This document shows, one piece after another, positions 1-26,233 of a stretch of DNA of 39,501 nt. The translations under genes were made by a program, and so were the position numbers. The stretch lies in the IMG/VR virus record IMGVR_UViG_2671180547_000005. One strand, 5' to 3'. Within the stretch, counting starts at the first letter, position 1; every line of letters starts with the position of its first letter. The notes beneath the pieces are model-generated. The model had not been told where the DNA came from, ran no database searches, and saw only the letters and a program-made list of their open reading frames with translations. This DNA is from a virus (lineage: Duplodnaviria > Heunggongvirae > Uroviricota > Caudoviricetes).

Positions 1-70
1 TCGGTTTACGGGAAACGGTAAACAGGGCGGCGAATGCTCTGCCATCGGACGGCACCGCCGTTGCCGCGAA
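1..70. repeat. Left inverted-repeat copy of the invertible tail-fibre segment; positions 1-14 are the inner half of a gix-like site
   Basis: Positions 1..70 match the reverse complement of 1250..1319 with one mismatch (position 38). Window starts at the core dinucleotide, so the outer half-site is off-window. Confidence 0.75.
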
Positions 71-362
71 TAGACTCGCCACCCCAAGAAATATTAATGG
101 GGTTCCCTTTGACGGGACGCAGGACATAAACATCACTTCTGGTATAACACAGCAGGATGCGGATTCCCGATATATCCAGGATATCAGGCTGGGAGCAGAG
201 AACAGGCAGGTAATGTACGGTGGGGCATATTACTCTGCGTACGGTAATGTTATGGCAGGCCTGCAGATTGACAGTAAAGTTGATGCTTCAAACGATTTTA
301 TAGCATTCAGACCCCTGCAAAAATTAGTCGGAGGTACATGGATTACGGTATCTCAGTTATAA
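3..362 (+). CDS. Tail fibre protein, variable C-terminal segment (5' partial; constant part off-window)
   Basis: Open frame from position 3 to TAA at 360..362; the first ~23 aa (GLRETVNRAANALPSDGTAVAAN) are shared with the inverted alternative segment, then diverge. Confidence 0.7.
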   Translation, partial: GLRETVNRAANALPSDGTAVAANRLATPRNINGVPFDGTQDINITSGITQQDADSRYIQDIRLGAENRQVMYGGAYYSAYGNVMAGLQIDSKVDASNDFIAFRPLQKLVGGTWITVSQL

Positions 363-413
363 ATAGTCAGTAAATAATATATTTTAAAACAGATTTATTT
401 CCAGGAGGATTTT

Positions 414-935
414 ATGGAACTAAAAAATATAACCCGTTATTATCCTGAAAATATGCCATATGGTAATAATGTTCAGTATTTCCAGAGTGAAGATGGTAAG
501 GATTTCTACGAATCCCTGCCATTATTCACCAAAAAATATAAACTTTGCATAACACCTGACAGCGGCGTTATCTGCTCAATATCACAGGACGCCTCGGCGC
601 TGTATCCTGCGGGGTTTTCTGTGGTTGAGGTCGATGAACTCCCTGAAGGCACGGATATTTCAGGAAACTGGAAGTTTGATAATGGCATAATCTCCCGTAT
701 TCCGGTTAACTACGCAAGAAAACTGGAAGCAATGCGCCAGTCATATCTTAATCAGGCATATGAAAAAATTAATGACTGGAGAACGGAGCTACAACTGGGC
801 ACCATCAGCGATGAAGACAGAGCAGCACTTACCCAATGGATGGCATACATCAGTCAGGTGAAGAAAATGGAACTACCCGCCATTAAAACAGAAGCTGAAT
901 TTAACGCCATTAAATGGCCTGAGCAGCCACAGTAA
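414..935 (+). CDS. Tail fibre assembly chaperone (Tfa / Mu U-like)
   Basis: 173 aa directly downstream of the fibre segment; C-terminus has the W-x-x-Y ... I-x-WP pattern typical of Tfa proteins. Confidence 0.7.
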   Translation: MELKNITRYYPENMPYGNNVQYFQSEDGKDFYESLPLFTKKYKLCITPDSGVICSISQDASALYPAGFSVVEVDELPEGTDISGNWKFDNGIISRIPVNYARKLEAMRQSYLNQAYEKINDWRTELQLGTISDEDRAALTQWMAYISQVKKMELPAIKTEAEFNAIKWPEQPQ

Positions 936-940
936 TAAAG

Positions 941-960
941 AAGGCCGGAAGGCCTTCTGA
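941..960. terminator. Hairpin between convergent tfa and alternative fibre segment
   Basis: Perfect 8-bp stem AGAAGGCC / GGCCTTCT with a 4-nt loop, AU-rich flanks, between two convergent stop codons. Confidence 0.4.
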
Positions 961-966
961 ATATCA

Positions 967-1319
967 TTATATACTTGCAGCCGTCACCCATGCTCCATTT
1001 AACAGATACTGCAACGGCCGGTAATACACGCCGCCGACGTTATCTGCCGTATTCTTACCGACATCCTGTACTTTAATTCCGGTAAGAACATTGCCGCCCC
1101 CCAGATTCAGATCCCAGCTTTCCCATGTTCCGGGCATATGTGCGGTCACCGACCCCAGTCTTATGGCGGTTACTGTTCCTGATGAGATAGTGATATCCTG
1201 CGTCCCGTCAAAGGGAACACCATTAATTGTGTGGGCATTTGCCAGCCTGTTCGCGGCAACGGCGGTGCCGTCCGATGGCAGGGCATTCGCCGCCCTGTTT
1301 ACCGTTTCCCGTAAACCGA
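967..1319 (-). CDS. Alternative tail fibre C-terminal segment (silent here; fused to the constant part after inversion)
   Basis: Minus-strand frame is open from the stop at 1351..1353 down to TAA at 967..969; begins with the same ~23 aa as the plus-strand segment and ends with a different ~95 aa tail. Confidence 0.6.
1250..1319. repeat. Right inverted-repeat copy of the invertible segment
   Basis: Reverse complement matches window 1..70 (69/70). Confidence 0.75.
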
Positions 1320-1331
1320 GGTTTTCAGGAA
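1306..1331. promoter_or_regulatory. gix/hix-like 26-bp recombination site (right copy)
   Basis: TTCCCGTAAACC-GA-GGTTTTCAGGAA: near-palindromic 12-2-12 layout, close to the Mu gix sequence as I recall it, immediately upstream of the invertase gene. Confidence 0.65.
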
Positions 1332-1396
1332 AGCCAGGATTAACTCTGTTTTATTCCTCATGCGACAATTCCGGCTTTTTATAATAAGGAAATCGT

Positions 1397-1969
1397 ATGC
1401 TGATTGGGTATATCAGGGTGTCAACAAATGACCAGAATACGGCGCTACAAAGAAATGCGCTGGAATGTGCAGGATGTGAGCTGTTTTTCGAAGACAGAAT
1501 AAGCGGTAAGACAAGGGAGCGTCCCGGACTTAAACGCGCATTAAAGCGACTCCGGCCAGGGGATACCCTGCTGGTCTGGAAACTGGATCGCCTTGGACGC
1601 AGTATGCAGCACCTTGTCCTTTTAACAGAAGAACTCCGGCAACGCGGCGTTAACTTCCGCAGCATTACGGACAATATTGATACATCCACTCCCATGGGAC
1701 GTTTCTTTTTCCATATAATGGGCGCGCTGGCGGAAATGGAGCGGGAACTCATTATTGAACGTACACGCGCGGGTCTTGCTGCTGCCCGTGCTCAGGGGCG
1801 TCATGGCGGCAGACCTCAGAAACTGACAGAGAAAGAGCGGGAGCAAATCGCCCGTTTGCTGGCTAATGGCGAGTCCCGTAAACAAATCGCACTGATATTT
1901 GATATTGGCCTTTCCACCCTTTATCGTTATTTTCCTGCCTCACCAGCTCCGTCACCAAAAGTACCGTGA
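1397..1969 (+). CDS. gin: Serine DNA invertase, Gin/Hin/Cin/Pin family
   Basis: 190 aa; N-terminal MLIGYIRVSTNDQ with catalytic Ser, resolvase core, C-terminal HTH; adjacent to the gix-like site. Symbol given by analogy to Mu. Confidence 0.9.
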   Translation: MLIGYIRVSTNDQNTALQRNALECAGCELFFEDRISGKTRERPGLKRALKRLRPGDTLLVWKLDRLGRSMQHLVLLTEELRQRGVNFRSITDNIDTSTPMGRFFFHIMGALAEMERELIIERTRAGLAAARAQGRHGGRPQKLTEKEREQIARLLANGESRKQIALIFDIGLSTLYRYFPASPAPSPKVP

Positions 1970-2054
1970 CGCTTTTTTGAATTTCCGCAAAACACATATT
2001 TTTCAGCGGTCGCTATTCTGACTCTGTTTAATTCAGAAACAGGCAGAAAAGACG

Positions 2055-4109
2055 ATGTCAGACTCCAAGTGGAAAATGCTCTCCGCCATGCCCGGAGAGT
2101 TTTCAGTCAAGGTTGCCGGTGGCACGGTGGCATTTATTGAAAGCCCTTTCCGCCCTTCGGGTAATAAAGGGGGGATCACCTTCGCAGACTGCGTGATCCG
2201 CTTCAGCACGAAAGAGCCATTATGGGTAATGCCGGTATCCGGTAATCCCAGTGCAGAAATCACCAGTTCAGGCGTGACTGGCATCATTCCAATCACATCT
2301 GACGTGGCCGGAACGCTCACGCCCTCCGACTGGAATGCACCGGATAACGCCGGGCCTTCCGGTAGCACGAATGGCAGCAGTTCAGAGCCGGAATATTACT
2401 TTGTTGTCATTCTCGCGGGTCAGTCAAATGGCATGGCCTACGGCGAGGGGCTGCCGTTACCGGATTCGTTTGACCGCCCGGACCCACGCATTAAGCAACT
2501 GGCACGCCGCAGTACGGTAACGCCCAACGGTACGTCGTGTACATACAACGACATCATTCCGGCAGACCACTGCCTGCATGATGTTCAGGATATGAGCGGG
2601 ATAAACCACCCGAAAGCTGATCTGGCAAAAGGCCAGTACGGGACTGTCGGTCAGGGGTTGCATATTGCCAAAAAACTGCTTCCCTATATCCCACAGAATG
2701 CCGGGATACTTCTGGTGCCCTGTTGTCGTGGCGGGTCAGCATTCACCACTGGAGCCGACGGCTCATTCAGTGAGGCCAGCGGTGCTTCCGCTGATTCTTC
2801 ACGCTGGGGGGCCGGTAAACCTCTGTATCAGGACCTGGTAAGCCGCACCAAAGTCGCGCTGGCGAAAAACCCGAAAAACAAACTTCTGGCTGTGGTCTGG
2901 ATGCAGGGAGAGGCAGACCTTGCCTCAGGAAGCCAGCAGCATAATAGTTTATTCACGGCCATGGTTCAGCAGTTCAGAACTGACCTGGCTCCGCTTGCTG
3001 CGCAGTGCGTGAGTGGAAATGCCACCACGGTGCCGTGGATTTGCGGTGATACCACGTATTACTGGAAAAACGCTGGCACCGATAAATATGAGGCAGTATA
3101 CGGTGGCTACAAAGGCAAGGAAGCACAGAAAATTTTCTTTGTACCGTTCCTGACGGATGAGAATGGACAGAGCACGCCAACGAATGCTCCGGCGGAAGAC
3201 CCGGATATTGTGGCTGTCGGGTATTACGGTGCAGCATCCCGAACCCAGGGCAGTTTTGTTTCGACACAGCGTGACAGCCATTTCAGCTCATGGGCACGCA
3301 GGGGCGTCATTTCAGACCGTCTGGCCTCAGCTATTATGCTCCATGCAGGGCGCACGGCTGAACTGATGCGTGGGCAGACCGTGACACCACCGGATGAGAA
3401 GCCGTCACCTGATACACCATCAAAACCGTCCACGCCACCCGCAGACACCACGACGATGAGTACGCTATTTGCTTACCGGGCATCTGAGTCTGAAGGACGG
3501 TTGACACCACAGGGTTGGGCTGCCGGAGGTGGCAAGGCTCAAATCGTGGATGATGCCGGAGCCAGCGGGGGTAAGGCAATGAAACTGACCAAGGAAACAG
3601 GAAGAGCCCCCTGGTACCTTGAGCATGATGCTGGTAATGGTGCGGACCTGCTGGGTAAAGGTGGTCTTGTCAGTTGTCGTTTTAAACTCGATGGCGCGCT
3701 TACGGCTAATCAGTACGCACTGGCGCTGTACTGGCCGGTTTCTGCCCTGCCGCAAGGGGTTACTCTGGAAGGAAATGCCGGTCATAACCTGCTGGCATCG
3801 TTCTACGTACAGAGCGATGCCACAGACCTTAACGTGATGTATCACAAAGGAAACACGGCGCAGAACACGAAGCTGGGGTCATTCGGCGCATTTAATAACG
3901 AATGGCATACGCTGGGCTTCCGTTTTGCCGGTAACAACAGTATTGAGGTGACGCCGGTCATTGATGGTAAGGACGGGACACCATTCATGCTGTCGCAGTC
4001 TCCGGTCGGCACGTTTACGGCAGACAAGTTGCGCGTGACCGATATCACTAAAAATGCGACTTACCCGGTACTGATTGACAGTATCGTGGTGGAAGTGAAT
4101 AACGCGTAA
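2055..4109 (+). CDS. NanS-p-like sialate O-acetylesterase (SASA/SGNH domain) with Pro/Thr linker and C-terminal lectin-like domain
   Basis: 684 aa; VVILAGQSNGMAYGEG matches the GQSN motif of the sialate O-acetylesterase family; size and modular layout resemble prophage NanS-p proteins. Confidence 0.6.
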   Translation: MSDSKWKMLSAMPGEFSVKVAGGTVAFIESPFRPSGNKGGITFADCVIRFSTKEPLWVMPVSGNPSAEITSSGVTGIIPITSDVAGTLTPSDWNAPDNAGPSGSTNGSSSEPEYYFVVILAGQSNGMAYGEGLPLPDSFDRPDPRIKQLARRSTVTPNGTSCTYNDIIPADHCLHDVQDMSGINHPKADLAKGQYGTVGQGLHIAKKLLPYIPQNAGILLVPCCRGGSAFTTGADGSFSEASGASADSSRWGAGKPLYQDLVSRTKVALAKNPKNKLLAVVWMQGEADLASGSQQHNSLFTAMVQQFRTDLAPLAAQCVSGNATTVPWICGDTTYYWKNAGTDKYEAVYGGYKGKEAQKIFFVPFLTDENGQSTPTNAPAEDPDIVAVGYYGAASRTQGSFVSTQRDSHFSSWARRGVISDRLASAIMLHAGRTAELMRGQTVTPPDEKPSPDTPSKPSTPPADTTTMSTLFAYRASESEGRLTPQGWAAGGGKAQIVDDAGASGGKAMKLTKETGRAPWYLEHDAGNGADLLGKGGLVSCRFKLDGALTANQYALALYWPVSALPQGVTLEGNAGHNLLASFYVQSDATDLNVMYHKGNTAQNTKLGSFGAFNNEWHTLGFRFAGNNSIEVTPVIDGKDGTPFMLSQSPVGTFTADKLRVTDITKNATYPVLIDSIVVEVNNA

Positions 4110-4110
4110 G

Positions 4111-4146
4111 CAGGATAAAAAAATGCCGCCGGTAAGGGAAAACAAG
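4111..4146 (-). terminator. Intrinsic terminator oriented for leftward transcription
   Basis: 10-bp stem TGCCGCCGGT / ACCGGCGGCA; the 7-nt T-run follows the hairpin only on the minus strand. Confidence 0.5.
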
Positions 4147-4253
4147 AAACCGGCGGCAAAAAGATCGTTATATCCAAAGCAAAAAATGCAGTGCACCTTT
4201 TTACCTAACAGATATTACCGGTGTCAACACCATGTCAATAATTGGGAGGGATA

Positions 4254-4436
4254 ATGACATTTTTACAGCTTATTTTATTGTATTTCTGCACGGCAGTATG
4301 TGCGTTATATCTGGTGAGTGGTGGTTATAAGGCCATCAGAAATTATGTTCGCCGCAAAATTGAGGACGCAGCAGCTGAAAAACTCAGTAAAACAGCGCAG
4401 GTAACTCCGCTCCCAAAAGACCCGACCCAGCCCTGA
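4254..4436 (+). CDS. Small hydrophobic (probably membrane) protein, unknown function
   Basis: ATG at 4254 preceded by GGGAGGG; 60 aa with a hydrophobic N-terminus followed by a charged tail. Confidence 0.45.
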   Translation: MTFLQLILLYFCTAVCALYLVSGGYKAIRNYVRRKIEDAAAEKLSKTAQVTPLPKDPTQP

Positions 4437-4471
4437 TTGCAGGGCTTTATTCCCGCATAAGGAGGATATAC

Positions 4472-4726
4472 ATGCCAGAAATTAAAGGCACCGTCACTGA
4501 AGACCTGGTAAAACAGGCACTGTATTCCGGTGAAGTAAATAAGTTGCTGAAAGCGCAGGTCCGCAAGGATTTTGAGGCACAAATCGACACTTACGTTGAT
4601 GAAGTGCTGGCAAAACTTATTGGGCCAGCAGTTGCGGCCAGTGATGCTGATAATGAGCCGAAAACCGACGCGCAGCCAGAGCAACCAGACCCGGCTCAGC
4701 CCGGAACTGACAGTACCATGATGTAA
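4472..4726 (+). CDS. Small acidic protein, unknown function
   Basis: Strong RBS AAGGAGG 6 nt upstream; 84 aa with an acidic Pro-rich C-terminus. Confidence 0.45.
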   Translation: MPEIKGTVTEDLVKQALYSGEVNKLLKAQVRKDFEAQIDTYVDEVLAKLIGPAVAASDADNEPKTDAQPEQPDPAQPGTDSTMM

Positions 4727-4783
4727 CAATACAAACCGGTGGTGTCCTCTGCCGGTTTGACACTAATGAAAACATCTTTGCCG

Positions 4784-4812
4784 CTATCCAGCCATATGTA
4801 ATCGCTGGATAG
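4784..4812 (+). terminator. Hairpin after the small two-gene cassette
   Basis: Perfect 9-bp inverted repeat CTATCCAGC / GCTGGATAG with an 11-nt loop, followed by a U-rich tract; a second hairpin lies at about 4732..4758. Confidence 0.4.
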
Positions 4813-4893
4813 TATTTCGTATTCAGAAATATAGCTGCTTATGGAGCAGTCAATCCTGCTTCCCCATCCGGGCAGGCAAATGAACCGGTATCA

Positions 4894-5187
4894 TTAGTCC
4901 GATTCACGCTTTTGTAGAATCGTTCCCAGAATGCTATACAGCTCATTAGCCTGTTGCTCCATCATTGAGACGGAGGCTATACGGTGCAAAGTGATTTCAG
5001 GAGGTGGCACACCTCCATCTTCTTGCTGTGGAGGAAAAACATAAGATTTAATAAAAAAGTTGAAGCATATGAACTCTCCCGCACTCGAACTGTATTTGCA
5101 GGCATCTGAATAATCGGAAAAATAATCATTATAGATTTCCGCATTTTCAATCATTTTTCGATTTCTCGTCGTTACATGATTGTCCAT
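4894..5187 (-). CDS. Hypothetical protein in an AT-rich segment (moron candidate)
   Basis: 97 aa; ATG preceded by AAGAGG; region is visibly AT-rich compared with the rest of the phage. Confidence 0.4.
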   Translation of the reverse strand: MDNHVTTRNRKMIENAEIYNDYFSDYSDACKYSSSAGEFICFNFFIKSYVFPPQQEDGGVPPPEITLHRIASVSMMEQQANELYSILGTILQKRESD

Positions 5188-5376
5188 AGCAGCCTCTTAC
5201 GCTGGCAATTAACCAATTGACTTCTATAAATTAGTTGATTTGTTTGCTTTGCGGTATTCAAATGTACAATCATTCAGCACTTATGCGTTACAGCACCGTT
5301 TAAAATTAGTGATCAAACTCATAAATTTTCGCTAATGACATTTCGTGTTATTTGTTGTATCAATTAAATAAATCAA

Positions 5377-5400
5377 ATCGATCGTTTTTGTCGATCGATT
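5377..5400. promoter_or_regulatory. GATC pair in a palindromic context upstream of com-mom
   Basis: GATC at 5380..5383 and 5393..5396 within TCGATCG ... TCGATCGA, about 45 bp upstream of the com start; Mu mom is controlled through GATC methylation. Confidence 0.4.
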
Positions 5401-5443
5401 GAGTGATAAAGATATCAACAACAAAGCAGGAGGTTATGCGGCC

Positions 5444-5644
5444 ATGTATCGAAACATACGGTGCCGACATTGTAACAAGCTACTGGCACGAGCCAGCTTC
5501 AGTTATCTGGAAGTTAAATGTCCGCGCTGTAAAACCCTCAATCAAATCACATCTCAGAGCGCCACAGAGCACCCCACATACACAAGGAAATCCTGTCGTG
5601 GGGAACAGAAAGCAAGTTACATCCCGTATCATCAGCACGCCTGA
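5444..5644 (+). CDS. com: Com-like zinc-finger translational activator of mom
   Basis: 66 aa from the internal ATG with an upstream AGGAGG; CxxC ... CPRC zinc-finger pattern as in Mu Com. Confidence 0.7.
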
Positions 5645-6335
5645 ACTTATTCACTATAACGACAATATCGTCGGTTATGGCTCCCGTGAGTTACGGGTTG
5701 AGACAATAAGTTGCTGGCTGGCCCGGCTGGTCGTCGTCAATAAACATTACAGCCATCGTTTCGTAAATAATTCCTACCTTCATCTGGGCATATTTTCAGA
5801 ACGGGAGCTGGTTGGCGTAATGCAATGGGGTTATGCCCTTAATCCAAACAATGGTGCACGCGTCGTAACTGGCACGCAGAACCGCGAATATATGGAGCTT
5901 AACCGGTTATGGCTGCATGACTGTATGCCGAGAAACTCCGAATCAAGGGCAATCAGTTACGCGCTCAAACTAATCAGACAACTTTATCCGCAGGTGCAGT
6001 GGGTTCAGTCGTTTGCAGATGAGCGTTGTGGCTGTCTTGGTGTCGTGTACCAGGCAAGCAATTTTGATTATGTAGGCAGTCATGAAACAACATTCTATGA
6101 ACTTGATGGCGAGTGGTATCACGAGATTTGCAAGAATGCAATCAAACGAGGAGGACAGCGAGGTGAACATCTGCGGGCTAATATCGACAGAGCCAGTGTT
6201 CATAAATTCCGTCAGTTTCGTTACATCCGGTTTCTGGACAAGAGAGCCAGAAAACGCCTTAACACAAAGCTATTCAAAGTCCAGCCTTACCCAAAACCAC
6301 AAACAGTTAAAACTGGTTTGAAAGAGAGTGAATGA
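5598..6335 (+). CDS. mom: Mom-like DNA modification protein
   Basis: Overlaps the 3' end of com in another frame; GTG at 5598 preceded by AAGGAAA; about 245 aa; last gene before the phage end, as in Mu. Start codon inferred. Confidence 0.55.
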
Positions 6336-6379
6336 ACGCTTAAAAACTCATTCTAAAACTCAAAAGAAAAGCGCCGATT

Positions 6380-6463
6380 TAGTATCAAATAAGTTGCGTA
6401 TCGGCGTTTTTCAGCGGTATCAAATGAAATGCAAATCGGTATCAAAAAAATCGCCGCGCTATA
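6380..6463. repeat. Phage right-end (attR-like) cluster of three closely spaced transposase-site repeats
   Basis: AGTATCAAATAAG (6381), CGGTATCAAATGA (6416), CGGTATCAAAAAAA (6437); inferred terminus about 6456..6463 (...GCGCTATA). Confidence 0.6.
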
Positions 6464-6465
6464 GA

Positions 6466-6504
6466 CAGCCTAAGCGGCTGCTGACCTCCCTGACCATGCT
6501 GTAA
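6466..6504 (+). pseudogene. Detached 3' end of IS66 tnpB (QPKRLLTSLTML-stop)
   Basis: Reads in frame as the continuation of the tnpB that ends at 38853 on the other phage flank (…LLEGIDWR + QPKRLLTSLTML). Confidence 0.5.
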
Positions 6505-6548
6505 ATCTCTTTATCCTGGTTGTCACAGAATAAGCCCGGTAAAATACG

Positions 6549-6853
6549 NNNNNNNNNNNNNNNNNNNNNNNNNNNNNNNNNNNNNNNNNNNNNNNNNNNN
6601 NNNNNNNNNNNNNNNNNNNNNNNNNNNNNNNNNNNNNNNNNNNNNNNNNNNNNNNNNNNNNNNNNNNNNNNNNNNNNNNNNNNNNNNNNNNNNNNNNNNN
6701 NNNNNNNNNNNNNNNNNNNNNNNNNNNNNNNNNNNNNNNNNNNNNNNNNNNNNNNNNNNNNNNNNNNNNNNNNNNNNNNNNNNNNNNNNNNNNNNNNNNN
6801 NNNNNNNNNNNNNNNNNNNNNNNNNNNNNNNNNNNNNNNNNNNNNNNNNNNNN
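6549..6853. other. Assembly gap (305 N)
   Basis: Run of n. Confidence 1.
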
Positions 6854-7221
6854 ACGTCAGCGGGACCAAGACTGTTTTTTGTGGCAAGCGTCCCCAGACC
6901 AAGATAACCACGGGCCAGACGCTGGGCCTCCGCACCGGCATCAGCAATTTCTTTCAGGTTATTTTTCCGGGAAAAGGCATTCGCAGCGATAATGGCTTTA
7001 ATGGACAGCGTAAGCTGGTTTAACTGCGCCTTATCCGGCTGAATACTGGCTTCAGCCAGAATATTCAGCAGTTCGGCCTGGAGAATATTCAGCCAGTCCT
7101 GACCAATCCAGCTGATACCTTTTTGTCCGTCACCTTCGGTAAACCAGGTGGTGGTATTACTCTGCGCCGGTGCCAGCGCAGGCATATTCGCCACGCCGGA
7201 ATTATTATCAACATGAAACAT
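6854..7221 (-). CDS. Tail fibre protein, N-terminal constant part (truncated by the gap)
   Basis: Minus ORF starting at 7221 runs into the N-gap; sits after the gp48-like gene in Mu order. Confidence 0.6.
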
Positions 7222-7781
7222 TAAATAGTCTCCTCTTCATGGCTGTTTGCATAAACGTAAATAAACGTCTGCCATGCAGGCTTATAACGGTTCAGAATAC
7301 ATTCCAGCGCACCGCCTTCATAAATACGCAGCGGCGTGAGAATATCATCCAGCACATTCATATTCCGGTAGCCGGTTTCACTGTTAATCGTGACAATACT
7401 GACCCACTGCGAATCCGGTGAGGGCTGAATGTCAATCTGATAACCAAACTCCGCCGCAAACCGGATATAAAATTCACGGTTCAGCGAGGGCTTCATCCGG
7501 TATTTATTTCCGGCATAACGCTGTCGCTCCGTGAGGGTGGCTCCGGCCATATCACACTCGGGAAGCCCGAGATAACGCTCCCAGTCTTCCAGCAGCAGGC
7601 GCGACGTGTCAGGGAAACGCTCGGCAAGCAGCTGTTTACCCGTCCAGGATACACGCGCTGTCGAATGACTGAGGCCCAGACATAATGATGCCAGTACGGA
7701 TGACGGACGCTTGTCCCATGCCAGCCCGTCAGGCAGTAACTGCAACAGGGCGCGCTGATGCGGGGTCAGGGTTACAGCCAT
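7221..7781 (-). CDS. Mu gp48-like tail protein
   Basis: 186 aa between the baseplate J-like gene and the fibre gene; start overlaps the upstream stop. Confidence 0.6.
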   Translation of the reverse strand: MAVTLTPHQRALLQLLPDGLAWDKRPSSVLASLCLGLSHSTARVSWTGKQLLAERFPDTSRLLLEDWERYLGLPECDMAGATLTERQRYAGNKYRMKPSLNREFYIRFAAEFGYQIDIQPSPDSQWVSIVTINSETGYRNMNVLDDILTPLRIYEGGALECILNRYKPAWQTFIYVYANSHEEETI

Positions 7782-8854
7782 GTGATTTCTCCTACCGTCA
7801 GCAGCTCACTGTCTCCCGCCTGAACTGACGTCAGCGGACTGCGCACTTCAAAATCCTCCAGATTTTTCACCCCTGCCACCGCCCGCCAGAAAGACGACGG
7901 CAGAACCAGACCGCCGGGCCGGGATTCGTTATACAACAGGTCGGTCAGCGCCTGTTTTACGGCCGCCTGATTCTCCGGTGTTTTCGGGATGATCCTGATG
8001 CTGAAGGGCACCGGCTTATTGGTCAGTTTAAACACGGTCACCGTCGGCCCCAGAGGCTGTCCGACAGGCTGGCCGGTCGCCGGATCATCATGACTGCGGA
8101 TATAATCCGCCACCCGCTGAACATCACCGTCACCGGGGAAAATATCCGGGTTATTATCCTGAACAAACGTTACCCCCACGCTGCCCGCCTGCGGCCATTC
8201 CGGGCGGCACCATGCCCGCGTCACGCCCGGCACTTCACGCGCCCAGCGTTCAAAATCATACTGCGTGCCGCCGGACGGTGGATTCTGCACCCGGAAAACC
8301 AGACGGGAAAGCAGCTCCGGCACGGTTTCCACATCCGCACCACCGGTGATCCCCGTTCCGGTCACCGTGGCCGTCTGGTTGATCCCCGCCTGCGGTGTGA
8401 TAAATGTCAGTTTTGTCCCTGCCGGGGCATTCCCCGCACGACCGGCACTTTCGGCTTCCACACTGACATTCAGCGTACCGGCCTTACCGGTCAGGGAGGT
8501 GGTGATACGGTAAACCACGCCATCACTTCGCTGGAGAAGCACACCTTCCTTGATCCCCGCATCCGTGGTCAGCATCAGCTGAACCGGCCCGTCCCCCCGA
8601 GAGGCAGGCTTACGCATGACGCCCCAGAATGCACAGTGTTTCAGCAGTTCGGCTTCATCGGCTTCGGTCGGGATGATCTGACGCGCAATCCAGGCCAGAT
8701 GCTCATGCTCCTGAGCAGATAACCCTGCCTGAGCGTAAGCAATGGCATTCAGGGTGGTTTCATTCACACCCGGCTGCGAGCCGGGCAGGCGCTGGCTGAT
8801 ATCCTGCTGTGTCTGCGTGATTAACTGTGCCAGCGGTAAAGGCTGATAAGGCAT
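7772..8854 (-). CDS. Baseplate J-like protein (Mu gp47)
   Basis: 360 aa; position and size. Confidence 0.7.
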   Translation of the reverse strand: MPYQPLPLAQLITQTQQDISQRLPGSQPGVNETTLNAIAYAQAGLSAQEHEHLAWIARQIIPTEADEAELLKHCAFWGVMRKPASRGDGPVQLMLTTDAGIKEGVLLQRSDGVVYRITTSLTGKAGTLNVSVEAESAGRAGNAPAGTKLTFITPQAGINQTATVTGTGITGGADVETVPELLSRLVFRVQNPPSGGTQYDFERWAREVPGVTRAWCRPEWPQAGSVGVTFVQDNNPDIFPGDGDVQRVADYIRSHDDPATGQPVGQPLGPTVTVFKLTNKPVPFSIRIIPKTPENQAAVKQALTDLLYNESRPGGLVLPSSFWRAVAGVKNLEDFEVRSPLTSVQAGDSELLTVGEITWL

Positions 8855-9291
8855 TACTCCCCCTTAAGATCAGCATAAAAAATCATGGGCCTCACTGAAC
8901 CATCAGGCAGGGTTATGCGCACCGAAAGCGCCAGCCGCGCGTGTCCCACACGTTCTGCATGACAGACCACGGATGACGCCACGCCATCCTGACTGAGCCA
9001 GCCCAGCGCCTCATCCGCGTAAGCACGGGCACGGCTTATCACCGAGGCCAGCGTTTTTTCCCGGCTGAGAAGCCACAGACGGGAGCCAATGGGGCGCGGG
9101 CGAAAACTGTCTCCCCACCATCCCCGGCGGTCGCGCGTACCGTCAGGGATTTCATCCGATGCCAGCGCCCGGCGGTCAGTAAACAGCGAAATCAGAACGG
9201 CCGTCAGCAGACTGTCATCCGTCAGCAAGTCGGCACCGTTCAGTTGCAGCGAACCGCACCCCTGATCCCATACAATTGCAATATCAGCCAT
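8854..9291 (-). CDS. Baseplate protein (Mu gp46-like)
   Basis: Start set at the ATG giving MADIAIVWDQ, overlapping the upstream stop by 8 nt. Confidence 0.6.
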   Translation of the reverse strand: MADIAIVWDQGCGSLQLNGADLLTDDSLLTAVLISLFTDRRALASDEIPDGTRDRRGWWGDSFRPRPIGSRLWLLSREKTLASVISRARAYADEALGWLSQDGVASSVVCHAERVGHARLALSVRITLPDGSVRPMIFYADLKGE

Positions 9292-9898
9292 TCTCCGGCG
9301 CTCCTGTCTTACTGCCTTTGCCGTTATCCTGATGCACATGGCCGGAATAGGTGATCCCGGCAATAACGGCATCAGACATCGTGAACAGCCCGTCTGATTT
9401 ACCTGTACCATCAAGCACGAAATTACCCTTAACATGCAGGTTTTTATCCACCGTCACATTGCCCGTAAAGGTGGCCTCCGGCGTATCCACCCGCATCCCC
9501 TCATCGGCGTAAATCTCCAGCATTTTGCATGTCACAATAATGCGACCATCCTTTGTTAACCGTATCCGGTGCCCCTCATGGTGATACACCCCCGTATCTC
9601 CGGCTGTGAGTCCGGTCGGGCGGCTGCGCCGGTCTTCCACCACAAGCACCACAGTCTGATCCCGCTGTCCGCCCAGACAGGCAAAAAAGGTTTCCGCACC
9701 CGGCAGGGGAACGCTGATCTGCCCGTACTGCTGGGGACGCTCCACATCATCAAAGGTTTCGCCGTCCATGCCGGTGAGCTGCACATTCTGCATTTTCAGT
9801 TCGTCATGTGTGCCGGTCAGAACGCCCCGGCCAAACAACAGGCGAATACCGCGCGTTACCGGGGCAATCAGGCGGCTGAACACTTCATCATTCATCAA
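9284..9898 (-). CDS. Baseplate spike/assembly protein (gpV-like, Mu gp45)
   Basis: 204 aa; position and size. Confidence 0.65.
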   Translation of the reverse strand: MMNDEVFSRLIAPVTRGIRLLFGRGVLTGTHDELKMQNVQLTGMDGETFDDVERPQQYGQISVPLPGAETFFACLGGQRDQTVVLVVEDRRSRPTGLTAGDTGVYHHEGHRIRLTKDGRIIVTCKMLEIYADEGMRVDTPEATFTGNVTVDKNLHVKGNFVLDGTGKSDGLFTMSDAVIAGITYSGHVHQDNGKGSKTGAPENG

Positions 9899-11012
9899 AG
9901 CTGATCCCCTGTTTTTTCATCTGCTGGCGAATAAAGGCATCAACATCGTCACCGGAACCACCCCGGCCCTTACTGTCCGGCTCTGCCGGAACGATAAAGC
10001 CGTCACGCGGTGCCAGTACCAGCCGGGTGACTTCCCCGTTATGTTCATCAAGTAAAAACTCCACCTGACAGACCAGCAGTTCAGTCTGTTCTATACCGAA
10101 ACGCAGGGCTGAAACACCGGTCAGCAGATTGACATCCCATAACCGGCCATCATCCCGGAACCAGCCACGCACGGTGGCAGAAAACCGTTCTGAACGGGCA
10201 ATCGCACGGCGCATTTCACGCAGGGCACGCTGCCGTGCACCGGTGGTGTCTGTCTGTTGATCGGCGAGGATGATTTTCGACCGGTAGCGGCCGATCTGCT
10301 CATCACTGATGACGCCCACAGGTGCTGCCAGACGGGCGGCGGATTCGCTGTCTCCCCGTTTGCCACCACCGCGCCCGTGTCCCCGGACACGGTATTCGCT
10401 GTATCGTCCTCGCCAGTCCGTGTTGTAATCGGCATCAAGCAGGTTATCTCCCAGCACCAGTCTGTCCGTCTGCTGGCTTCCTGCCTGGGTGAACACCAGA
10501 TCGCCGTCAGCATTACTGGTCACCAGCACCCCGCGATGCCGGGCAGCACGGGTCAGCGCATCCGCCACGGTTTCTGAGTTTTCCAGCGTAAAAGAGCTGA
10601 AGGGGCGTGCAGCCGTGTCGTCGTTAACCTGCCAGCGCACGGCTATCCCGAAGGGCGCACATAAATCTGCGGCAATCTGTGCCAGCGTCCGGTTGCGCCA
10701 CTGGCTGCCGGGATGGATGGCGGCACAGTCCACCAGGTCGCCGGTTTTATCCCGACCGCTGATGCTGATCTGATGACGGGTTGCACTGATCCGCTGACTG
10801 ACCTGATCCAGCCAGCCACTGATGACCGTCTGCCCGTTAATTCTGAGCGTCAGGGACTGACCGGTTCGCAGGGCTGAGGGGATGCGCTCACCGGGCAGCA
10901 TCAGCCCCAGTTCAAACGACCCGGCCAGATGCTCCAGCGAGCGACGGACGCTGACCGTCAGCCAGCCGGAAAAAATACTGCCACCGATATACAGTTCAAT
11001 CCTGCTGCTCAC
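9888..11012 (-). CDS. Tail/baseplate hub protein (P2 gpD-like, Mu gp44)
   Basis: 374 aa; position between the circularisation protein and the spike. Confidence 0.65.
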   Translation of the reverse strand: MSSRIELYIGGSIFSGWLTVSVRRSLEHLAGSFELGLMLPGERIPSALRTGQSLTLRINGQTVISGWLDQVSQRISATRHQISISGRDKTGDLVDCAAIHPGSQWRNRTLAQIAADLCAPFGIAVRWQVNDDTAARPFSSFTLENSETVADALTRAARHRGVLVTSNADGDLVFTQAGSQQTDRLVLGDNLLDADYNTDWRGRYSEYRVRGHGRGGGKRGDSESAARLAAPVGVISDEQIGRYRSKIILADQQTDTTGARQRALREMRRAIARSERFSATVRGWFRDDGRLWDVNLLTGVSALRFGIEQTELLVCQVEFLLDEHNGEVTRLVLAPRDGFIVPAEPDSKGRGGSGDDVDAFIRQQMKKQGISFDE

Positions 11013-12354
11013 TGATCACCTCCACGCTGCGGCCACCCGGAACAAAAACCGGATCGGGGATATTGTTTCTGCGGACAAAATACTGCCAGCGACTGCTGTT
11101 GCCGGTGGCACGGTACAGCGTGACCAGTGCCGGTTCGGTGGTGCGAACCATGACCTGAAAAGCACCGGGAAGATGCACGCTCCGTGTGGTTAAATCTTCT
11201 GTCAGCGCAAGCCCTGCATCACGTAATGCAAGGGCAGTCCCGGTATAGCCCTGTGCGGACAGATCCAGCACCTGTTGTTCCATGGCATCGCTCAAATCCC
11301 GGTTGATACGCTGCACATCAGCAGAACTTTCCAGCCAGGCCAGTCCGCCCGAACGGTCAGTATCCTGAACGTGCGTCGTATTCTGCCGGATGACCTGATC
11401 CAGCAGTTTTCCGAGCGTCTGTGCCTGCGACACCAGGGTTGCACTCTGCATCACGCTCCGCAGCAGACGGATATTTTTCTGTGCCGCAGGCGTCAGGCCA
11501 ATCAGGCGCTGTGGATCATCCTGTTCGCTGAGGGTGTAACGCAGGGAGGAAAGTGTGCGGTACAGCTGCGGCATGGCCTGCTCTGCCATGCTGTCACGGT
11601 TTGTGGTCAGGCTGCCGGACGGCGTTCCGGCTTTTCCGGTCAGAGACAGGGAAGGATCGCCGGGCAGCCCGGTCAGCACGGCAAACATTCCGGCCAGCGA
11701 TTCAGCCATGCGACGGGGCGCATTAATCAGGGCGGCGGCATTGCCTTTCAGGGCAGTAAAACTGGCCGTAAAGGCACTGATATCCTGCACAATCCCCATC
11801 CCCGAAACGGCATTCTCCAGTGCATCAATCTTATCGCTGATGGTGTCGGTCATGGCCTGTACATCATGCAGACCGTCTGAAATCACCGTCCAGCCGTCTG
11901 AAAGCGTGTTAAACAGCTGATTCATTGCTGAGCCGCTTTTCTGCTCCAGCGCAGCTGCCGTATCTTCTGCCACCGCAGGGGCGGTATCGTCACTGGCGGG
12001 GATCACGTTGATCGTGAACTCAACCGTTCCCTGCTCGCTGGCGTTATAACGGCTTTCAAAGCTGTTTATCAGCACGTTTAACGTGCCGTAATCCGGGTGC
12101 ATCAGTTCACCGGCACCGGGTGCACGCAGCGCATCACGCAGGCGGCTTCGCTGTGTCTGAAGATCGTCTCCGGTCACCAGAACCGTGAATGTGAACTCCG
12201 GGAGTTTTGGCCCCAGATCATCCGCACCGCCGCTTTCACGCAGTGGGTATTCACGGCGCACAATGTTACGTCCGCCCCGTTCCCGCTGCTCCTGATAAAC
12301 CAGGAACGGTACGCCACGAAAGGAGCCACGCCCCGGCGTGTCAGTAGAGGCCAT
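10996..12354 (-). CDS. DNA circularisation protein N-like (Mu gp43)
   Basis: 452 aa immediately after the tape measure gene. Confidence 0.65.
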   Translation of the reverse strand: MASTDTPGRGSFRGVPFLVYQEQRERGGRNIVRREYPLRESGGADDLGPKLPEFTFTVLVTGDDLQTQRSRLRDALRAPGAGELMHPDYGTLNVLINSFESRYNASEQGTVEFTINVIPASDDTAPAVAEDTAAALEQKSGSAMNQLFNTLSDGWTVISDGLHDVQAMTDTISDKIDALENAVSGMGIVQDISAFTASFTALKGNAAALINAPRRMAESLAGMFAVLTGLPGDPSLSLTGKAGTPSGSLTTNRDSMAEQAMPQLYRTLSSLRYTLSEQDDPQRLIGLTPAAQKNIRLLRSVMQSATLVSQAQTLGKLLDQVIRQNTTHVQDTDRSGGLAWLESSADVQRINRDLSDAMEQQVLDLSAQGYTGTALALRDAGLALTEDLTTRSVHLPGAFQVMVRTTEPALVTLYRATGNSSRWQYFVRRNNIPDPVFVPGGRSVEVISEQQD

Positions 12355-14398
12355 AGTTCCCTCCGTTCCAGACGTTCACATCCAGGCCATGCTGTGCGGT
12401 ATCATCCACATCAATACTGCGCGCCCGCCAGCCTTCAGGGGCAACAAGCTCCACCCGTGCGGCGGTTTTCGCGGTGGCCTGTCCGCCGTTTTCGTCACTG
12501 CCGCCACGCAGTTTCTGCCAGGCCTGCGTCAGCCAGCCCCCCAGATAATCACCGAGATAGCTGCCCACCGTGGAACCAATGGCAACCCCGACCGGACCGG
12601 CAGCCGCCCCCAGCGCGCCACCGGCGATACTTCCGGCAAGGGAACCCACGGCACCGGCTTTATCGGCTGCACTGGCGCTGCTGTCCAGCAGTACAGGAGC
12701 CGCCATGGCACCGGCCCACAGGGCACCACCACCCAGCCGACCGGCACCACGGAACAGCCCGGCAAAACGCCCCAGCCCCATGCGGTTTCCGGCCGCCGTT
12801 AGCAGACCACCGGCACGGCTCATCATACGACCGAAGAAGCCCTGTTTACCGGCACTCTCCGCCAGTTGCTCACCGGCAGTCACGACGGTCGTGACACCCC
12901 GTCCACGTCCGGGGCCGCGTTTTTTACGGCCGCGCACGGTTTTGCCGTCACCGCTGACCACCACATCCCCGCCACCTGAGGCCAGGCCACCCGCAGGCCA
13001 ATTGGTGACCAGCACGGGCTGAACGGCAGCCGGATTTACCCCGGTAAGGAAATTCAGGAACCGGCCAGCGCGTCCGGGCTGCGTTCCCGGTACAGTGGTC
13101 TGCGGTTTGCGGAAGGGCGACGTCAGCACGGAGGTCATCGCCATGCCATAGCGTAAGGGGGTTGCGCCGAGACGTAATGCCCCCGTCCCCGCAAACCTGA
13201 GCACCTTCAGCGCACGGGAGGCGAGATACATATACATCAGGTACTTTGCGGCGGTCTGCGCACCCTGACCAATGCGATCCAGCGCATCGCCATAACCGGC
13301 GTCGCGCAGTGCCTGAAGCGTTTCCCTGACTTTCTGAATGACCCGGTAAAAGCCGGTCGCAGCGTCTCTGGCATACTCAAATCCCTGATTCAGGGCTGAG
13401 GCCGTCTGTGTGGCCAGCTTATCCTGTAAGCCGCTTTTCTGTGCCGCATCAGCATAATCCAGAAAGCCTTTCAGGCTCTTTTTCAGGCTGTCAAACGGTC
13501 CCTTTGCCATCACCTCGCGGGCAAATCCGTCCCAGACATCGCCCATCATGGACGTCATTCCCGTCCAGGAATTCATGGCGTTTTTCTGGGCACCTTTTGC
13601 CTGTTCGGCCATCACCTGAAATAACAGGCGAATGCTGTCCGGTCCCAGTTTTCCTTTCTCGCCTTTCTCACGGATGATCTTCTGGTTTACACCCAGCTTA
13701 TCGGCCAGCAACTGGTAAACGTTAATCCCGTATCCGGTCAGAATATTGGCGTCCGCTGCCTGGATACTCTGGCGGGCAAACATCTGTTTGAGTTGCAGGG
13801 ACGCACCCTGTGCATCTGACAGTGACCAGCCGTGATAGCCGCCCTGATCCTGAAGCATGGTAATAAAGCGACGGGCTTCCCTGTCACTCATACCGAACCC
13901 GCGACTGGAGGCGTATTCCTGCATAACCCCCGCCAGCCCCCAGGTGGTGTCTTTGGCGTTCTGTACCGCCCAGGCTTTCACTGCTTCCGTTTTTGCCGTA
14001 TCGCCATGATTAATGGCGTTGAGACGCAGAATATAGTTCTCCATCTCTGCGGCCGGGCGGATAAAGGCTTTATTAAACCCGTAGACCGCAGCCCCTCCCG
14101 CCAGCATCCCGTAAAGGTTGCTTATCCGCCCGATGGTGCCGGTAATGCTGCCCTGAAGGCGGTCAAAATCTGACGTCACCGTGCGGATACTGCCACGAAC
14201 ACCGGCAAGCGTTCGCTGCATACGGGAGCCGACAAGTTCTGTCTCCTGACCGGCACGACGTGCTGCATTTCCAAGACCACCCAGCCCCGTCCTGCCGGAA
14301 CGGGAGAATGCCCCCAGCTCCTGTGACCACTGGCGGGATTTGGCAGAAATATTGCCGAGTAAATCGACAATCAGGGAGGCTTTCAGGTTTTTTGCCAT
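12341..14398 (-). CDS. Tail tape measure protein
   Basis: 685 aa; Gly/Ala-rich with repetitive C-terminal region; position after the chaperone. Confidence 0.8.
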   Translation of the reverse strand: MAKNLKASLIVDLLGNISAKSRQWSQELGAFSRSGRTGLGGLGNAARRAGQETELVGSRMQRTLAGVRGSIRTVTSDFDRLQGSITGTIGRISNLYGMLAGGAAVYGFNKAFIRPAAEMENYILRLNAINHGDTAKTEAVKAWAVQNAKDTTWGLAGVMQEYASSRGFGMSDREARRFITMLQDQGGYHGWSLSDAQGASLQLKQMFARQSIQAADANILTGYGINVYQLLADKLGVNQKIIREKGEKGKLGPDSIRLLFQVMAEQAKGAQKNAMNSWTGMTSMMGDVWDGFAREVMAKGPFDSLKKSLKGFLDYADAAQKSGLQDKLATQTASALNQGFEYARDAATGFYRVIQKVRETLQALRDAGYGDALDRIGQGAQTAAKYLMYMYLASRALKVLRFAGTGALRLGATPLRYGMAMTSVLTSPFRKPQTTVPGTQPGRAGRFLNFLTGVNPAAVQPVLVTNWPAGGLASGGGDVVVSGDGKTVRGRKKRGPGRGRGVTTVVTAGEQLAESAGKQGFFGRMMSRAGGLLTAAGNRMGLGRFAGLFRGAGRLGGGALWAGAMAAPVLLDSSASAADKAGAVGSLAGSIAGGALGAAAGPVGVAIGSTVGSYLGDYLGGWLTQAWQKLRGGSDENGGQATAKTAARVELVAPEGWRARSIDVDDTAQHGLDVNVWNGGNYGLY

Positions 14399-14401
14399 GG
14401 G

Positions 14402-14596
14402 TTACTGCTTCGTTCTGAGAATTTTTTCGGTCTGTCGGCAGTGCCGGTAAAGCTGCGATAAGGGGAGGTTAAGCGCCCACTCCGGGCCGCTTTTTGTCAC
14501 CATCCCCAGCACAATTGCGGCTTCTTCAATCTGATCCCGGCACTGCATCTGGTCGCCCCCGTTCAGCGACCAGCTTTCCGGCCATCGCGGAATCAA
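14402..14596 (-). CDS. Frameshift extension of the tail assembly chaperone
   Basis: Overlaps the 3' end of the chaperone ORF by 71 nt in the +1 frame and stops 4 nt before the tape measure start; a G5 run lies in the overlap. Confidence 0.45.
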   Translation of the reverse strand: MIPRWPESWSLNGGDQMQCRDQIEEAAIVLGMVTKSGPEWALNLPLSQLYRHCRQTEKILRTKQ

Positions 14597-15002
14597 GCAG
14601 GCTTACTGCCGCCATCAGTCGGGAGAGATCGCGCTCGCTGAGCTGTCCTATCTGACGCGGAGACAATGGCCCCTCAATCTGGCCGACAGCGGCAATCTGA
14701 CGGCGCAGCAGCGCAATGCCGCGCAGTGCCGGTGAGGCCACAAGAACCGGACCGTTTCGGGTTTCCATAAGACGCTCGGCCTCGCTCTCCGCATCAATGC
14801 TGTCTTTTGCCGTCAGTTCGCGGAAGGTGACGCGGTATTCACGGGATTCCCCGAACGGCAGACCGTCGAGCAGATCCACATAGCCGTTCGCCAGTTGTTC
14901 AGCCAGCCCGGCGGTGCGGGGATCGCCGTCTTCAAGTGCATCCCGGATAGCCTCCATCACGGCCTCGTCAGAAACCGCCGTTTTTTTCTTACGTGTGCTC
15001 AT
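14526..15002 (-). CDS. Tail assembly chaperone (Mu gp41-like)
   Basis: 158 aa acidic protein between the tube and tape measure genes. Confidence 0.65.
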   Translation of the reverse strand: MSTRKKKTAVSDEAVMEAIRDALEDGDPRTAGLAEQLANGYVDLLDGLPFGESREYRVTFRELTAKDSIDAESEAERLMETRNGPVLVASPALRGIALLRRQIAAVGQIEGPLSPRQIGQLSERDLSRLMAAVSLLDSAMAGKLVAERGRPDAVPGSD

Positions 15003-15016
15003 TACATTTTTCCTGA

Positions 15017-15382
15017 TTACTGGACACGGGTACTGGTGGCGCTGGCGAACTTCGCGGAGATATCACCACCACCGTCAAGCGAGGCCGGTTCACTGCTCCA
15101 GGCCTTCGTCATCATGTGGACTTCACCGGTATCGGCCACGAACTCAATCGTGACCGCAGTCCAGGTGTTGATTTCATCGGCAGCCGGTGAACCTTCTCCG
15201 CCCGCCGGGAATTTACAGTCCAGCGTCGCCTCACGGGGTTTCTCGCGATAGCCGTAAACTTTCGCGCCTTTCACCACTTCACGCTCAAAGCCGGACGGGG
15301 AGAACGTGGCCCCCTCAAGGGTGTCGTACTCCTGCCCGTTCACACGGATGGTGGCCGTGCCCTGATACTGTTTTCCGCTCAT
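15017..15382 (-). CDS. Tail tube protein (Mu M-like)
   Basis: 121 aa directly downstream of the sheath gene. Confidence 0.75.
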   Translation of the reverse strand: MSGKQYQGTATIRVNGQEYDTLEGATFSPSGFEREVVKGAKVYGYREKPREATLDCKFPAGGEGSPAADEINTWTAVTIEFVADTGEVHMMTKAWSSEPASLDGGGDISAKFASATSTRVQ

Positions 15383-15390
15383 GCCTTACC

Positions 15391-16893
15391 TCACAAAATG
15401 AAACGGATCTGCGCGGCCATGAAGCGGAACTGGTTAACCAGATCCGGTGTACACATCACATCCAGACGGTTACGGTCTTTTGTGTTGCGCTCCACGAGCA
15501 GATTCTTTTTAAAGGTGTCCAGATTTTCGACCAGTCCCAGATCCACCCATTCTTCCCCCAGCGAAATTAACTGAAGTTTCATGATCTCCGGTGTCACGAT
15601 ATTCTGACCGGCACGAACGGGCGTCCCGTCATCAGCCAGTTTATGGCGCGGAAAACGCTGCGTGATAAAGGTGCGCAGGGAATAACGCAGATATGACAGG
15701 GTGTAGATGGTTTCCACATCCAGATAGCTGGGATCGATTTCGCCGTATGCATTCTGACGGTACATCGTCACCTGACGTTCAATCTGCACCACATCCGCGG
15801 CCGCGACGGTCACCGTGGACATGCCGGTATAAAGCAGGCTGTTTCGCTCTTCCCGCGTCAGACGATCCGGTGCTTCAGGTGCCATACGGGCAGGCAGCGC
15901 CAGTGTCTGTAATGGTCGGGCCGGATCCGTTGACAGGGAGGGCGCACAGACCGCACAAATGGAGGCAGCCCAGACATAATCCGGCTCTGGTGCTTTAGGA
16001 ATAGAAGTGCAGGTAAACAGGAAGTCATTACGGGATTCACCAAAACTGGTTGCCGTACCGAAGGTGCCGGTATGCGCCATCCAGACCATACCGTCCGACA
16101 TTTTTACCGGTCCCCAGCGTTTCAGCAGTTCATCCGCCAGAATTTTGAGATTTGCCGCATCCTTATAGGGCATGACGATGTAGTTGTACTGACGATTCCC
16201 CATCCCTGAGACGCTACGGGTGATATCGGGGTTTGTTGCCTTCTGTGTTGGCGCGACGAGCTCCAGCGTAAGACCGGCCGGTGTAGTTTCACCGTCATAA
16301 TAGTTCACCCGTAAATCATGAGCTGAGCATTCACCGATAAAGCGGGCGTTAACCCCCATGCTGCCTTTAAGTCCTTCAGCATTATCACCACTGACTTCAG
16401 CTGCGATAGCAGTGAATGGCGCATCAGTGTCAGCGTTAATGACCTTAGCCAGCTCTTCCACAAGCTCTTTACCTTTTTTCCCCTTACTGACGGGCAGGAG
16501 GTAACGGCGACCGCCGATGTAAACACTTAACACCCCGTCTGCCAATGCTGTTCCAATGATATTCATCACGCATGCCCTGGACTGACCTGTTCCAGCCCCC
16601 TGTGCAATGGCATATAACTCTGTGTCAGGGTTAATGGCGATAAATTCCTCTACCATCAGTGCAATCATGGAACCTCGCCCCCAGAGTTCTCTTGCTTGTG
16701 AAGCTCGGGTAATACGTACTGGTACATCAAGCTGACCGCGCCCCTGAATGGTAGTGTCTTTCATTGCAGCCTGACCAAACAACAGTACCGCCTGACGCTG
16801 TGGTGGAGTGCCGGTCACGGCCATTGAATTATTGATTTCAATCTGTACCAGCGGAATGCGATTGTTATCGCCGATATAATCAAAGTTAATCAT
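15391..16893 (-). CDS. Contractile tail sheath protein (Mu L-like)
   Basis: 500 aa; position and size. Confidence 0.85.
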   Translation of the reverse strand: MINFDYIGDNNRIPLVQIEINNSMAVTGTPPQRQAVLLFGQAAMKDTTIQGRGQLDVPVRITRASQARELWGRGSMIALMVEEFIAINPDTELYAIAQGAGTGQSRACVMNIIGTALADGVLSVYIGGRRYLLPVSKGKKGKELVEELAKVINADTDAPFTAIAAEVSGDNAEGLKGSMGVNARFIGECSAHDLRVNYYDGETTPAGLTLELVAPTQKATNPDITRSVSGMGNRQYNYIVMPYKDAANLKILADELLKRWGPVKMSDGMVWMAHTGTFGTATSFGESRNDFLFTCTSIPKAPEPDYVWAASICAVCAPSLSTDPARPLQTLALPARMAPEAPDRLTREERNSLLYTGMSTVTVAAADVVQIERQVTMYRQNAYGEIDPSYLDVETIYTLSYLRYSLRTFITQRFPRHKLADDGTPVRAGQNIVTPEIMKLQLISLGEEWVDLGLVENLDTFKKNLLVERNTKDRNRLDVMCTPDLVNQFRFMAAQIRFIL

Positions 16894-17171: not shown

Positions 17172-17174
17172 CTG

Positions 17175-26223: not shown

Positions 26224-26233
26224 GATTCACCTC

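Follow-up and report, generated by a model that had tools for sequence, protein, structure and literature searches.

The 39,501-nt stretch of viral DNA analysed here in full (the window; IMG/VR record IMGVR_UViG_2671180547_000005) carries a prophage that lies within codon 104 of a tnpB gene in a Shigella sonnei lineage. Sequence comparisons assign this tnpB to an IS66-family element (ISEc8) and show that what interrupts it is a transposable prophage of the Mu-like kind, about 38.6 kb long. Within the window the prophage is presented as two blocks of differing orientation, and the best explanation of the whole, very probably correct as a joint account, is insertion by DDE transposition with duplication of the tetranucleotide GACA, combined with an artefactual flip of one block.

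A sequence-only reading of this DNA had placed the prophage inside an IS66 tnpB gene and proposed alignment to intact ISEc8-like elements, and both flanks proved to be contiguous and colinear on such copies. Positions 39368..38863 (minus strand) and 6464..6548 (plus strand) are adjacent pieces of a single ISEc8-family element. Megablast finds the former in thousands of E. coli records, in tnpA–tnpB of IS66-family elements, and matches the latter to the tnpB 3′ end and the spacer before tnpC with 100% identity, with the IS-derived sequence ending at 38863 on one flank and at 6464 on the other. On three intact copies (L001, L005 and L028; Table 1) the flanks overlap by exactly 4 bp (GACA), with identities of 99.0–99.6% for the left flank and 98.8–100% for the right. 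For L028, which is annotated as ISEc8 family and whose adjacent tnpC bears the PGAP name 'IS66-like element ISEc8 family transposase', these values are 99.0% over 506 nt and 100% over 85 nt. Matches this long and this identical rule out chance (E about 1e-41 for the 85-nt flank and 0 for the 506-nt flank). ISEc22 was rejected as the identity of the element, as it displays only 80–84% identity.

Table 1. Coordinates of the features discussed, given for the window unless another record is named; the last three rows locate the two flanks on intact ISEc8-family copies
Feature	Position	Strand	Remarks
Prophage right part	1..6463	+	Flipped in the window relative to the rest
Gin-type invertible tail-fibre segment, putative, about 1.3 kb	1..1331		gixL core TC 1-2; gixR 1306..1331 (core 1318-1319)
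Gin-like serine invertase, 190 aa	1397..1969	+	Resolvase 1.6e-51; HTH_7
684-aa gene	2055..4109		SASA (sialate O-acetylesterase-like) domain and DUF6645; between invertase gene and com/mom
Right-end repeats CGGTATCAAA	6415, 6437, degenerate copy 6380; region 6415..6463	+	
tnpB 3′ part	6464..6504	+	Duplicated GACA, then codons 104-115 (QPKRLLTSLTML) and stop
Target-site duplication GACA, right copy	6464..6467	+	
ISEc8 spacer tnpB–tnpC	6505..6548	+	Ends ~6 nt before tnpC ATG, at N run
N run, 305 N	6549..6853		Between ISEc8 spacer and tail-fibre 5′ part; one edge of flipped block
Mu-like prophage, left end to tail-fibre gene 5′ part	6854..38862	-	99.7% colinear with L003 513..32525
MuB-like AAA+ transposition ATPase, 313 aa	34550..35491	-	Phage-MuB_C 7.8e-25; AAA_22
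Transposase, 695 aa, predicted	35565..37652	-	HTH_Tnp_Mu_1 1.3e-8, Mu-transpos_C 2.1e-17 (Pfam)
Repressor-like gene	38071..38616	+	
Left-end repeats CGGTATCAAA	38689 (1 mismatch), 38741, 38836; region 38689..38862	+	
Target-site duplication GACA, left copy	38863..38866	-	
tnpB 5′ part	38863..39173	-	Codons 1-103 and first two bases of codon 104
Truncated ISEc8 tnpA	39170..39368	-	Without first 182 nt of gene and without IS left inverted repeat
IS3-family element, 3′ end	39369..39501	-	Adjoins truncated ISEc8
Intact copy, L001	1201-1706 / 1703-1787		Left flank / right flank
Intact copy, L005	725-1230 / 1227-1311		Left flank / right flank
Intact copy, L028 (ISEc8 family, annotated)	1999-2504 / 2501-2585		Left flank / right flank

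The intact target reads GGCGACAGCC and contains a single GACA; in the tnpB frame it is GAC TGG CGA CAG CCT, with the insertion point inside codon Gln104 and GACA standing once on either side of the insert. The fused ORF on the left flank (39173..38850, minus strand) encodes 107 aa ending ...LLEGIDWRHITR*. It had been described as ending in HITR with a stop made by the phage, which holds, but the ORF was taken to finish at 38853, and the phage-encoded stop is in fact at 38850. On the other flank, 6466..6504 translates to QPKRLLTSLTML*, and its proposed identity as the IS66 TnpB C-terminus agrees with the complete match to the tnpB 3′ end. Joining the flanks, as had been suggested, yields one ORF, whose 115-aa product scores 119.5 bits against the NCBIfam model IS66_TnpB NF033819 (cutoff 50) and is an existing Shigella protein, present as an exact sequence on 983 Shigella-named contigs. 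The truncated product (TnpB′) has Pfam TnpB_IS66 on record, and its exact 107-aa sequence is named only for Shigella sonnei, occurring on 108 contigs that include the 4.93-Mb record CP176614.1. The TnpB′ protein accessions belong to draft S. sonnei assemblies. The corresponding stretch of CP176614.1 (L008) is 99.99% identical to window 28849..39501, IS3 junction included.

Phage-free alleles, comparison with which had likewise been proposed, were searched for by looking up the 76-aa truncated TnpA ORF that is peculiar to the insertion locus. The locus was found without the phage in L033 and L034, both large chromosomal records (4.96 and 4.82 Mb), and on a small contig, L036, with the gene order IS3-family element, truncated tnpA, intact 115-aa tnpB and tnpC in each. 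When the two window flanks are joined through a single GACA, the resulting 720 nt, which include the IS3 junction, are identical to all three alleles (720/720, gapless), and this settles the main claim of insertion. Neither prophage junction is present in complete RefSeq E. coli genomes or PLSDB plasmids; exact searches of genome, metagenome and viral contig collections with the right junction and with the IS3/ISEc8 junction gave no match, and no exact protein record exists for the 58-aa ORF that spans the right junction. Exact baseplate protein and Mom sequences are too widespread to single out the insertion lineage, and homology searches with the downstream tail-fibre-N protein and with the truncated TnpC did not recover the exact proteins that would mark it.

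With regard to the prophage itself, relatives' annotation and Pfam assign to 6854..38862 a repressor-like gene, a Ner-like gene, transposase, MuB-like ATPase, Gam, Mor, lysis, head, tail and baseplate genes. The size of the whole prophage (~38.6 kb) and this gene order (repressor/Ner, A, B, Gam, Mor, lysis, head, tail, baseplate) resemble those of Mu and of enterobacterial Mu-like prophages. The right part (1..6463) harbours the invertible tail-fibre segment, the invertase gene, the DUF6645/SASA esterase-like gene, com/mom and the right terminus, so that, as in Mu, an invertible tail-fibre segment with a Gin-type invertase is followed by Com/Mom (Mom: Pfam 1.6e-77). The same two sources, the annotated relatives being 99.7% identical to the window, identify the Mu-type modules Mor, Gam, gpT head, Mu Gp36/37/45/46/48 and Com/Mom, and Pfam domains identify the pairing of a DDE transposase with a MuB-type AAA+ partner that marks Mu-like phages. 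The predicted transposase combines a Mu DNA-binding N-terminal domain with a Mu-transposase C-terminal domain. In a phmmer search of PDB the only matches are to the N-terminal domain of MuA (6.8e-6) and, weakly, to cores of retroviral integrases, and NCBIfam gives weak, sub-threshold rve-type matches over residues 259-430. The catalytic core thus differs from that of MuA in showing no phmmer-detectable similarity to it, and the transposase is distant from MuA in sequence. A further difference is the extra DUF6645/SASA-esterase gene between the invertase gene and com/mom; phage Mu is not known to have a gene at this position. Its 684-aa product may represent cargo or a receptor-modifying enzyme. 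PGAP annotates a 'tRNA-OTHER' in related prophages at the equivalent of window 21326..21405 (L003 17974..18053), and ARAGORN found no tRNA in the whole window.

Relatives of the prophage, 95–99.7% identical, are located at sgrR, bcsA, a diguanylate cyclase gene, ydcF/elyC, citD/citE, a P2 capsid gene and paaA. Their presence in unrelated genes is the random-insertion pattern of a transposable phage, and the occurrence of the family at many unrelated sites (8 in all), each with a short target duplication, is a further likeness to Mu. Sp18 of E. coli O157:H7 Sakai is presumably another relative, alongside the O157 matches. Copies of the family (94% identical over the early region) are also annotated inside Stx2c- and Stx1a-converting prophages (LC727881.1 and LC727895.1; H51, H52).

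The prophage ends read 5′-TATAACC...GCGCTATA-3′. The left terminus lies at 38862 (5′-TATAACCAGGTGAATCATTTGATACC, minus strand) and the right at 6463 (...ATCGCCGCGCTATA, plus strand), and all copies of the family share the ends 5′-TATAACCAGG...CGCCGCGCTATA-3′. Each end carries three repeats resembling transposase sites, as in Mu, with the outermost copy of CGGTATCAAA starting 27 nt from the terminus at both ends; across the window this motif has 11 matches against 2.4 expected. A longer phage end reaching past 6463, as displayed by the top right-end alignments, was dismissed as ranking bias, with unrelated flanks following GCGCTATA. The prophage borders can be set to the base, at 38862 and 6463.

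The tail-fibre segment is bounded by gix-like sites and contains imperfect inverted repeats (1-79 / 1241-1319 and 93-142 / 1178-1227). The left site, gixL, is TTATCGATAACG-TC-GGTTTACGGGAA, and the gix site of Mu is TTATCCAAAACC-TC-GGTTTACAGGAA; inward of the TC core, and including it, gixL and gixR share the same sequence. Compared with the near-identical prophage L003, the window has the segment in the opposite orientation, and both orientations occur among strains, giving alternative tail-fibre C-termini of 296 and 293 aa. A serine invertase together with two inverted 26-bp sites flanking alternative tail-fibre ends is the arrangement of the Gin/Hin/Cin/Pin systems, amongst which the present one would be placed. 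It resembles the Mu G segment with Gin and gix in having the invertase gene beside a segment, here of ~1.3 kb, with inverted gix-like sites. The Mu G segment, at ~3 kb, is larger, and the segment in the window contains only one tail-fibre assembly gene.

The two phage termini and every end repeat fall on the plus strand of the window. Both termini on one strand is impossible for a single transposon, and the block 1..6548 must therefore be flipped, as had been supposed from the two tnpB pieces lying on opposite strands. Comparison with L003 shows the same thing at length: window 6854..38865 corresponds to L003 32525..513 (minus orientation), 1193..6469 to L003 33879..39155 (plus orientation), and 1..1335 to L003 34005..32670 (the invertible segment in its other orientation). 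Relative to L003 only 161 nt of phage sequence are missing, whereas the gap is written as 305 N. When the reverse complement of 6854..7221 is bridged by L003 32526..32686 to window 1..362, the product is a tail-fibre ORF of 296 aa that has no interruption and ends in the alternative C-terminus. As this bridged ORF is intact, the sequence beyond the gap runs on naturally into the start of the block.

The earlier reading of the block as flipped is therefore upheld, but not as a biological event, for the flip is most likely a scaffold misorientation, the block being read as a misoriented contig because no recombination partner site was found. A real chromosomal inversion, produced for example by the Gin-like invertase at a secondary site or by illegitimate recombination, is improbable, although several features would suit it. 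The left edge of the block falls exactly on the gixL crossover core of 2 bp, where the sequence common to gixL and gixR begins; the invertase gene appears functional; the missing 161 nt are not an assembly-breaking repeat; and another resolvase-family gene lies ~5 kb downstream at the empty-site locus. Against this, that edge is also position 1 of the window, which is what a contig or record end would give, and the N run conceals the other edge. Neither a gix-like site (≥17/26 bases) nor other homology to the tail-fibre/gix region was found in ISEc8 tnpC, at the distance that an inversion would require, or anywhere in 10 kb of sequence beyond the empty site on its downstream side. In addition, every relative examined is colinear, with no flip.

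As to why a misoriented contig should have ended here, repeat collapse can be set aside, for the missing 161 nt are single-copy (median of one place per E. coli genome) and the arms of the inverted repeats have at most 37 exact bases in common. A break caused by a population in which the invertible segment varied in orientation is plausible. We infer the scaffolding history of the draft S. sonnei assemblies, and with it the way in which the right block is oriented in the actual chromosome, from these comparisons, the right junction being read in the window only. Unless long reads and a closed genome bear it out, the apparent inversion is to be treated as an assembly artefact and not as biology.

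On the reading preferred here, insertion followed by an assembly flip, the phage would have entered tnpB by DDE transposition carried out by its own MuA-like transposase and MuB-like ATPase. Target cleavage by the transposase, staggered by 4 bp and followed by gap repair, would have duplicated GACA. The true order would be the reverse complement of 6854..39501, then ~161 nt, then 1..6548, the last shown misoriented across the scaffold gap. At the right junction one would expect, on one strand, the phage end ...GCGCTATA followed directly by the tnpB 3′ piece GACAGCCTAAG and then by truncated tnpC.

The two flanks might instead derive from separate IS66 copies, shuffled by recombination between IS elements or by chimeric assembly through the repeat. 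ISEc8 is indeed multicopy, the 85-nt flank occurring at up to 18 places in an E. coli genome, and one draft contig, L009, runs into a full-length tnpA rather than a truncated one. Yet a direct repeat of exactly 4 bp stands where the flanks abut, as it does in 7 further independent insertions, the identity to the phage-free allele extends through its unique IS3/truncated-tnpA junction, and the flanks carry the lineage-specific TnpB residues I8 and S61 of that allele. Two separate copies are thus extremely improbable, and this reading is essentially refuted. In L009 (1..357) the phage/tnpB junction is as in the window and full-length tnpA follows, whereas the window and CP176614.1 have the IS3-truncated tnpA; the full-length gene in L009 is probably an assembly path through the multicopy IS.

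The 4-bp duplication is the normal footprint of this prophage family. All eight independent insertions (8/8) display an exact 4-bp direct repeat together with the same TATA...TATA termini, namely GACA in the window, AACA in L003, GACG in L004, TACG in L006 (the same insertion in L032), TAGA in L007, CATG in L029, CGCC in L030 and GTGA in L031. Four bases can be regarded as normal because only GACA is duplicated relative to the intact target, in which neither adjoining base is repeated, and because agreement at the fifth position occurs at about chance frequency among the family's insertions. The earlier description of a duplicated GACA with a mismatched fifth base was accurate, but the accompanying expectation of a Mu-type 5 bp was misplaced. 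Mu makes 5-bp and B3 6-bp target duplications (2021 transposable-prophage survey, PMC8705779), on which ground GACA might be thought the remnant of a canonical 5-bp duplication with one position mutated, but this is scarcely credible against a single, unextended GACA in the intact target and exact 4-bp repeats at every insertion.

The window phage therefore works like Mu and leaves a footprint that differs from those of both Mu and B3, with 4-bp duplications and 5′-TA...TA-3′ (TATA...TATA) ends; none of the eight insertions shows the 5-bp (Mu) or 6-bp (B3) duplication with TG...CA termini. All Mu- and B3-like phages described so far have kept TG-CA ends, except for a Leptospira TA-TA group (PMC8705779). 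Compared by features only, the Leptospira prophages (WETA1 group; PMC8705779) share TA ends with the window family, but they are of B3/Tn552 type, make 6-bp duplications and reside in spirochaetes, whereas the present family is enterobacterial, with a MuA-domain transposase and 4-bp duplications. A search of the literature found no paper giving the duplication length or termini of this prophage family, and none linking a Mu-like phage to a 4-bp duplication. It can tentatively be suggested that a widespread E. coli/Shigella Mu-like lineage with a 4-bp stagger and TA...TA ends, departing from Mu and B3 (PMC8705779), is a new feature. If so, the family would be a naturally occurring variant in which the control of stagger length by transpososome geometry could be studied. 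The footprint may bear on the mechanism of the transposase, and it is useful for the automatic delimiting of such prophages, as tools that expect TG...CA and 5 bp miss the ends. The insertion event itself is an ordinary instance of a known process, and the combination of a 4-bp duplication and TA ends is a small curiosity.

The interrupted element is an ISEc8 remnant rather than a functional IS, a complete element having terminal inverted repeats and tnpA–tnpB–tnpC. Alignment to intact copies starts only 182 nt into tnpA, which leaves the element without its left inverted repeat; the IS3/truncated-ISEc8 junction also occurs in L008, L033 and L034. The window copy otherwise resembles ISEc8 in its 99–100% identical flanks, its retained overlapping tnpA–tnpB arrangement and a TnpB that passes the NCBIfam model, and differs in lacking the left inverted repeat and the start of tnpA, with an IS3-family element adjoining. 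The tnpC gene lies under the N run or beyond, outside the readable sequence; amongst the empty-site alleles it has an internal deletion (152 aa) in L033 and L034 and is of full length in L036. With no left end, the copy was defective and immobile before the phage arrived.

Insertion separated tnpA–tnpB from tnpC, and cost TnpB its last 12 residues whilst adding HITR, with the conserved IS66_TnpB domain (residues 10-99) remaining whole in TnpB′. The insertion was probably neutral for the host, as the IS was already immobile with its left end missing and the 12 residues removed lie outside the conserved domain. The 107-aa 'TnpB' of this Shigella sonnei lineage is therefore to be understood as a phage-truncated fusion product. 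In another strain, a second ISEc8 copy on L036 (438..956) is cut by an IS3-family element 21 nt upstream of the GACA site and also gives a 107-aa TnpB, so that length alone does not mark the phage-truncated allele. The reciprocal case occurs in E. coli 23CRST047, where the IS66-family elements ISEc43 and ISEc22 are inserted in a prophage of the same family (L007 12148..14564 and 36679..39014).
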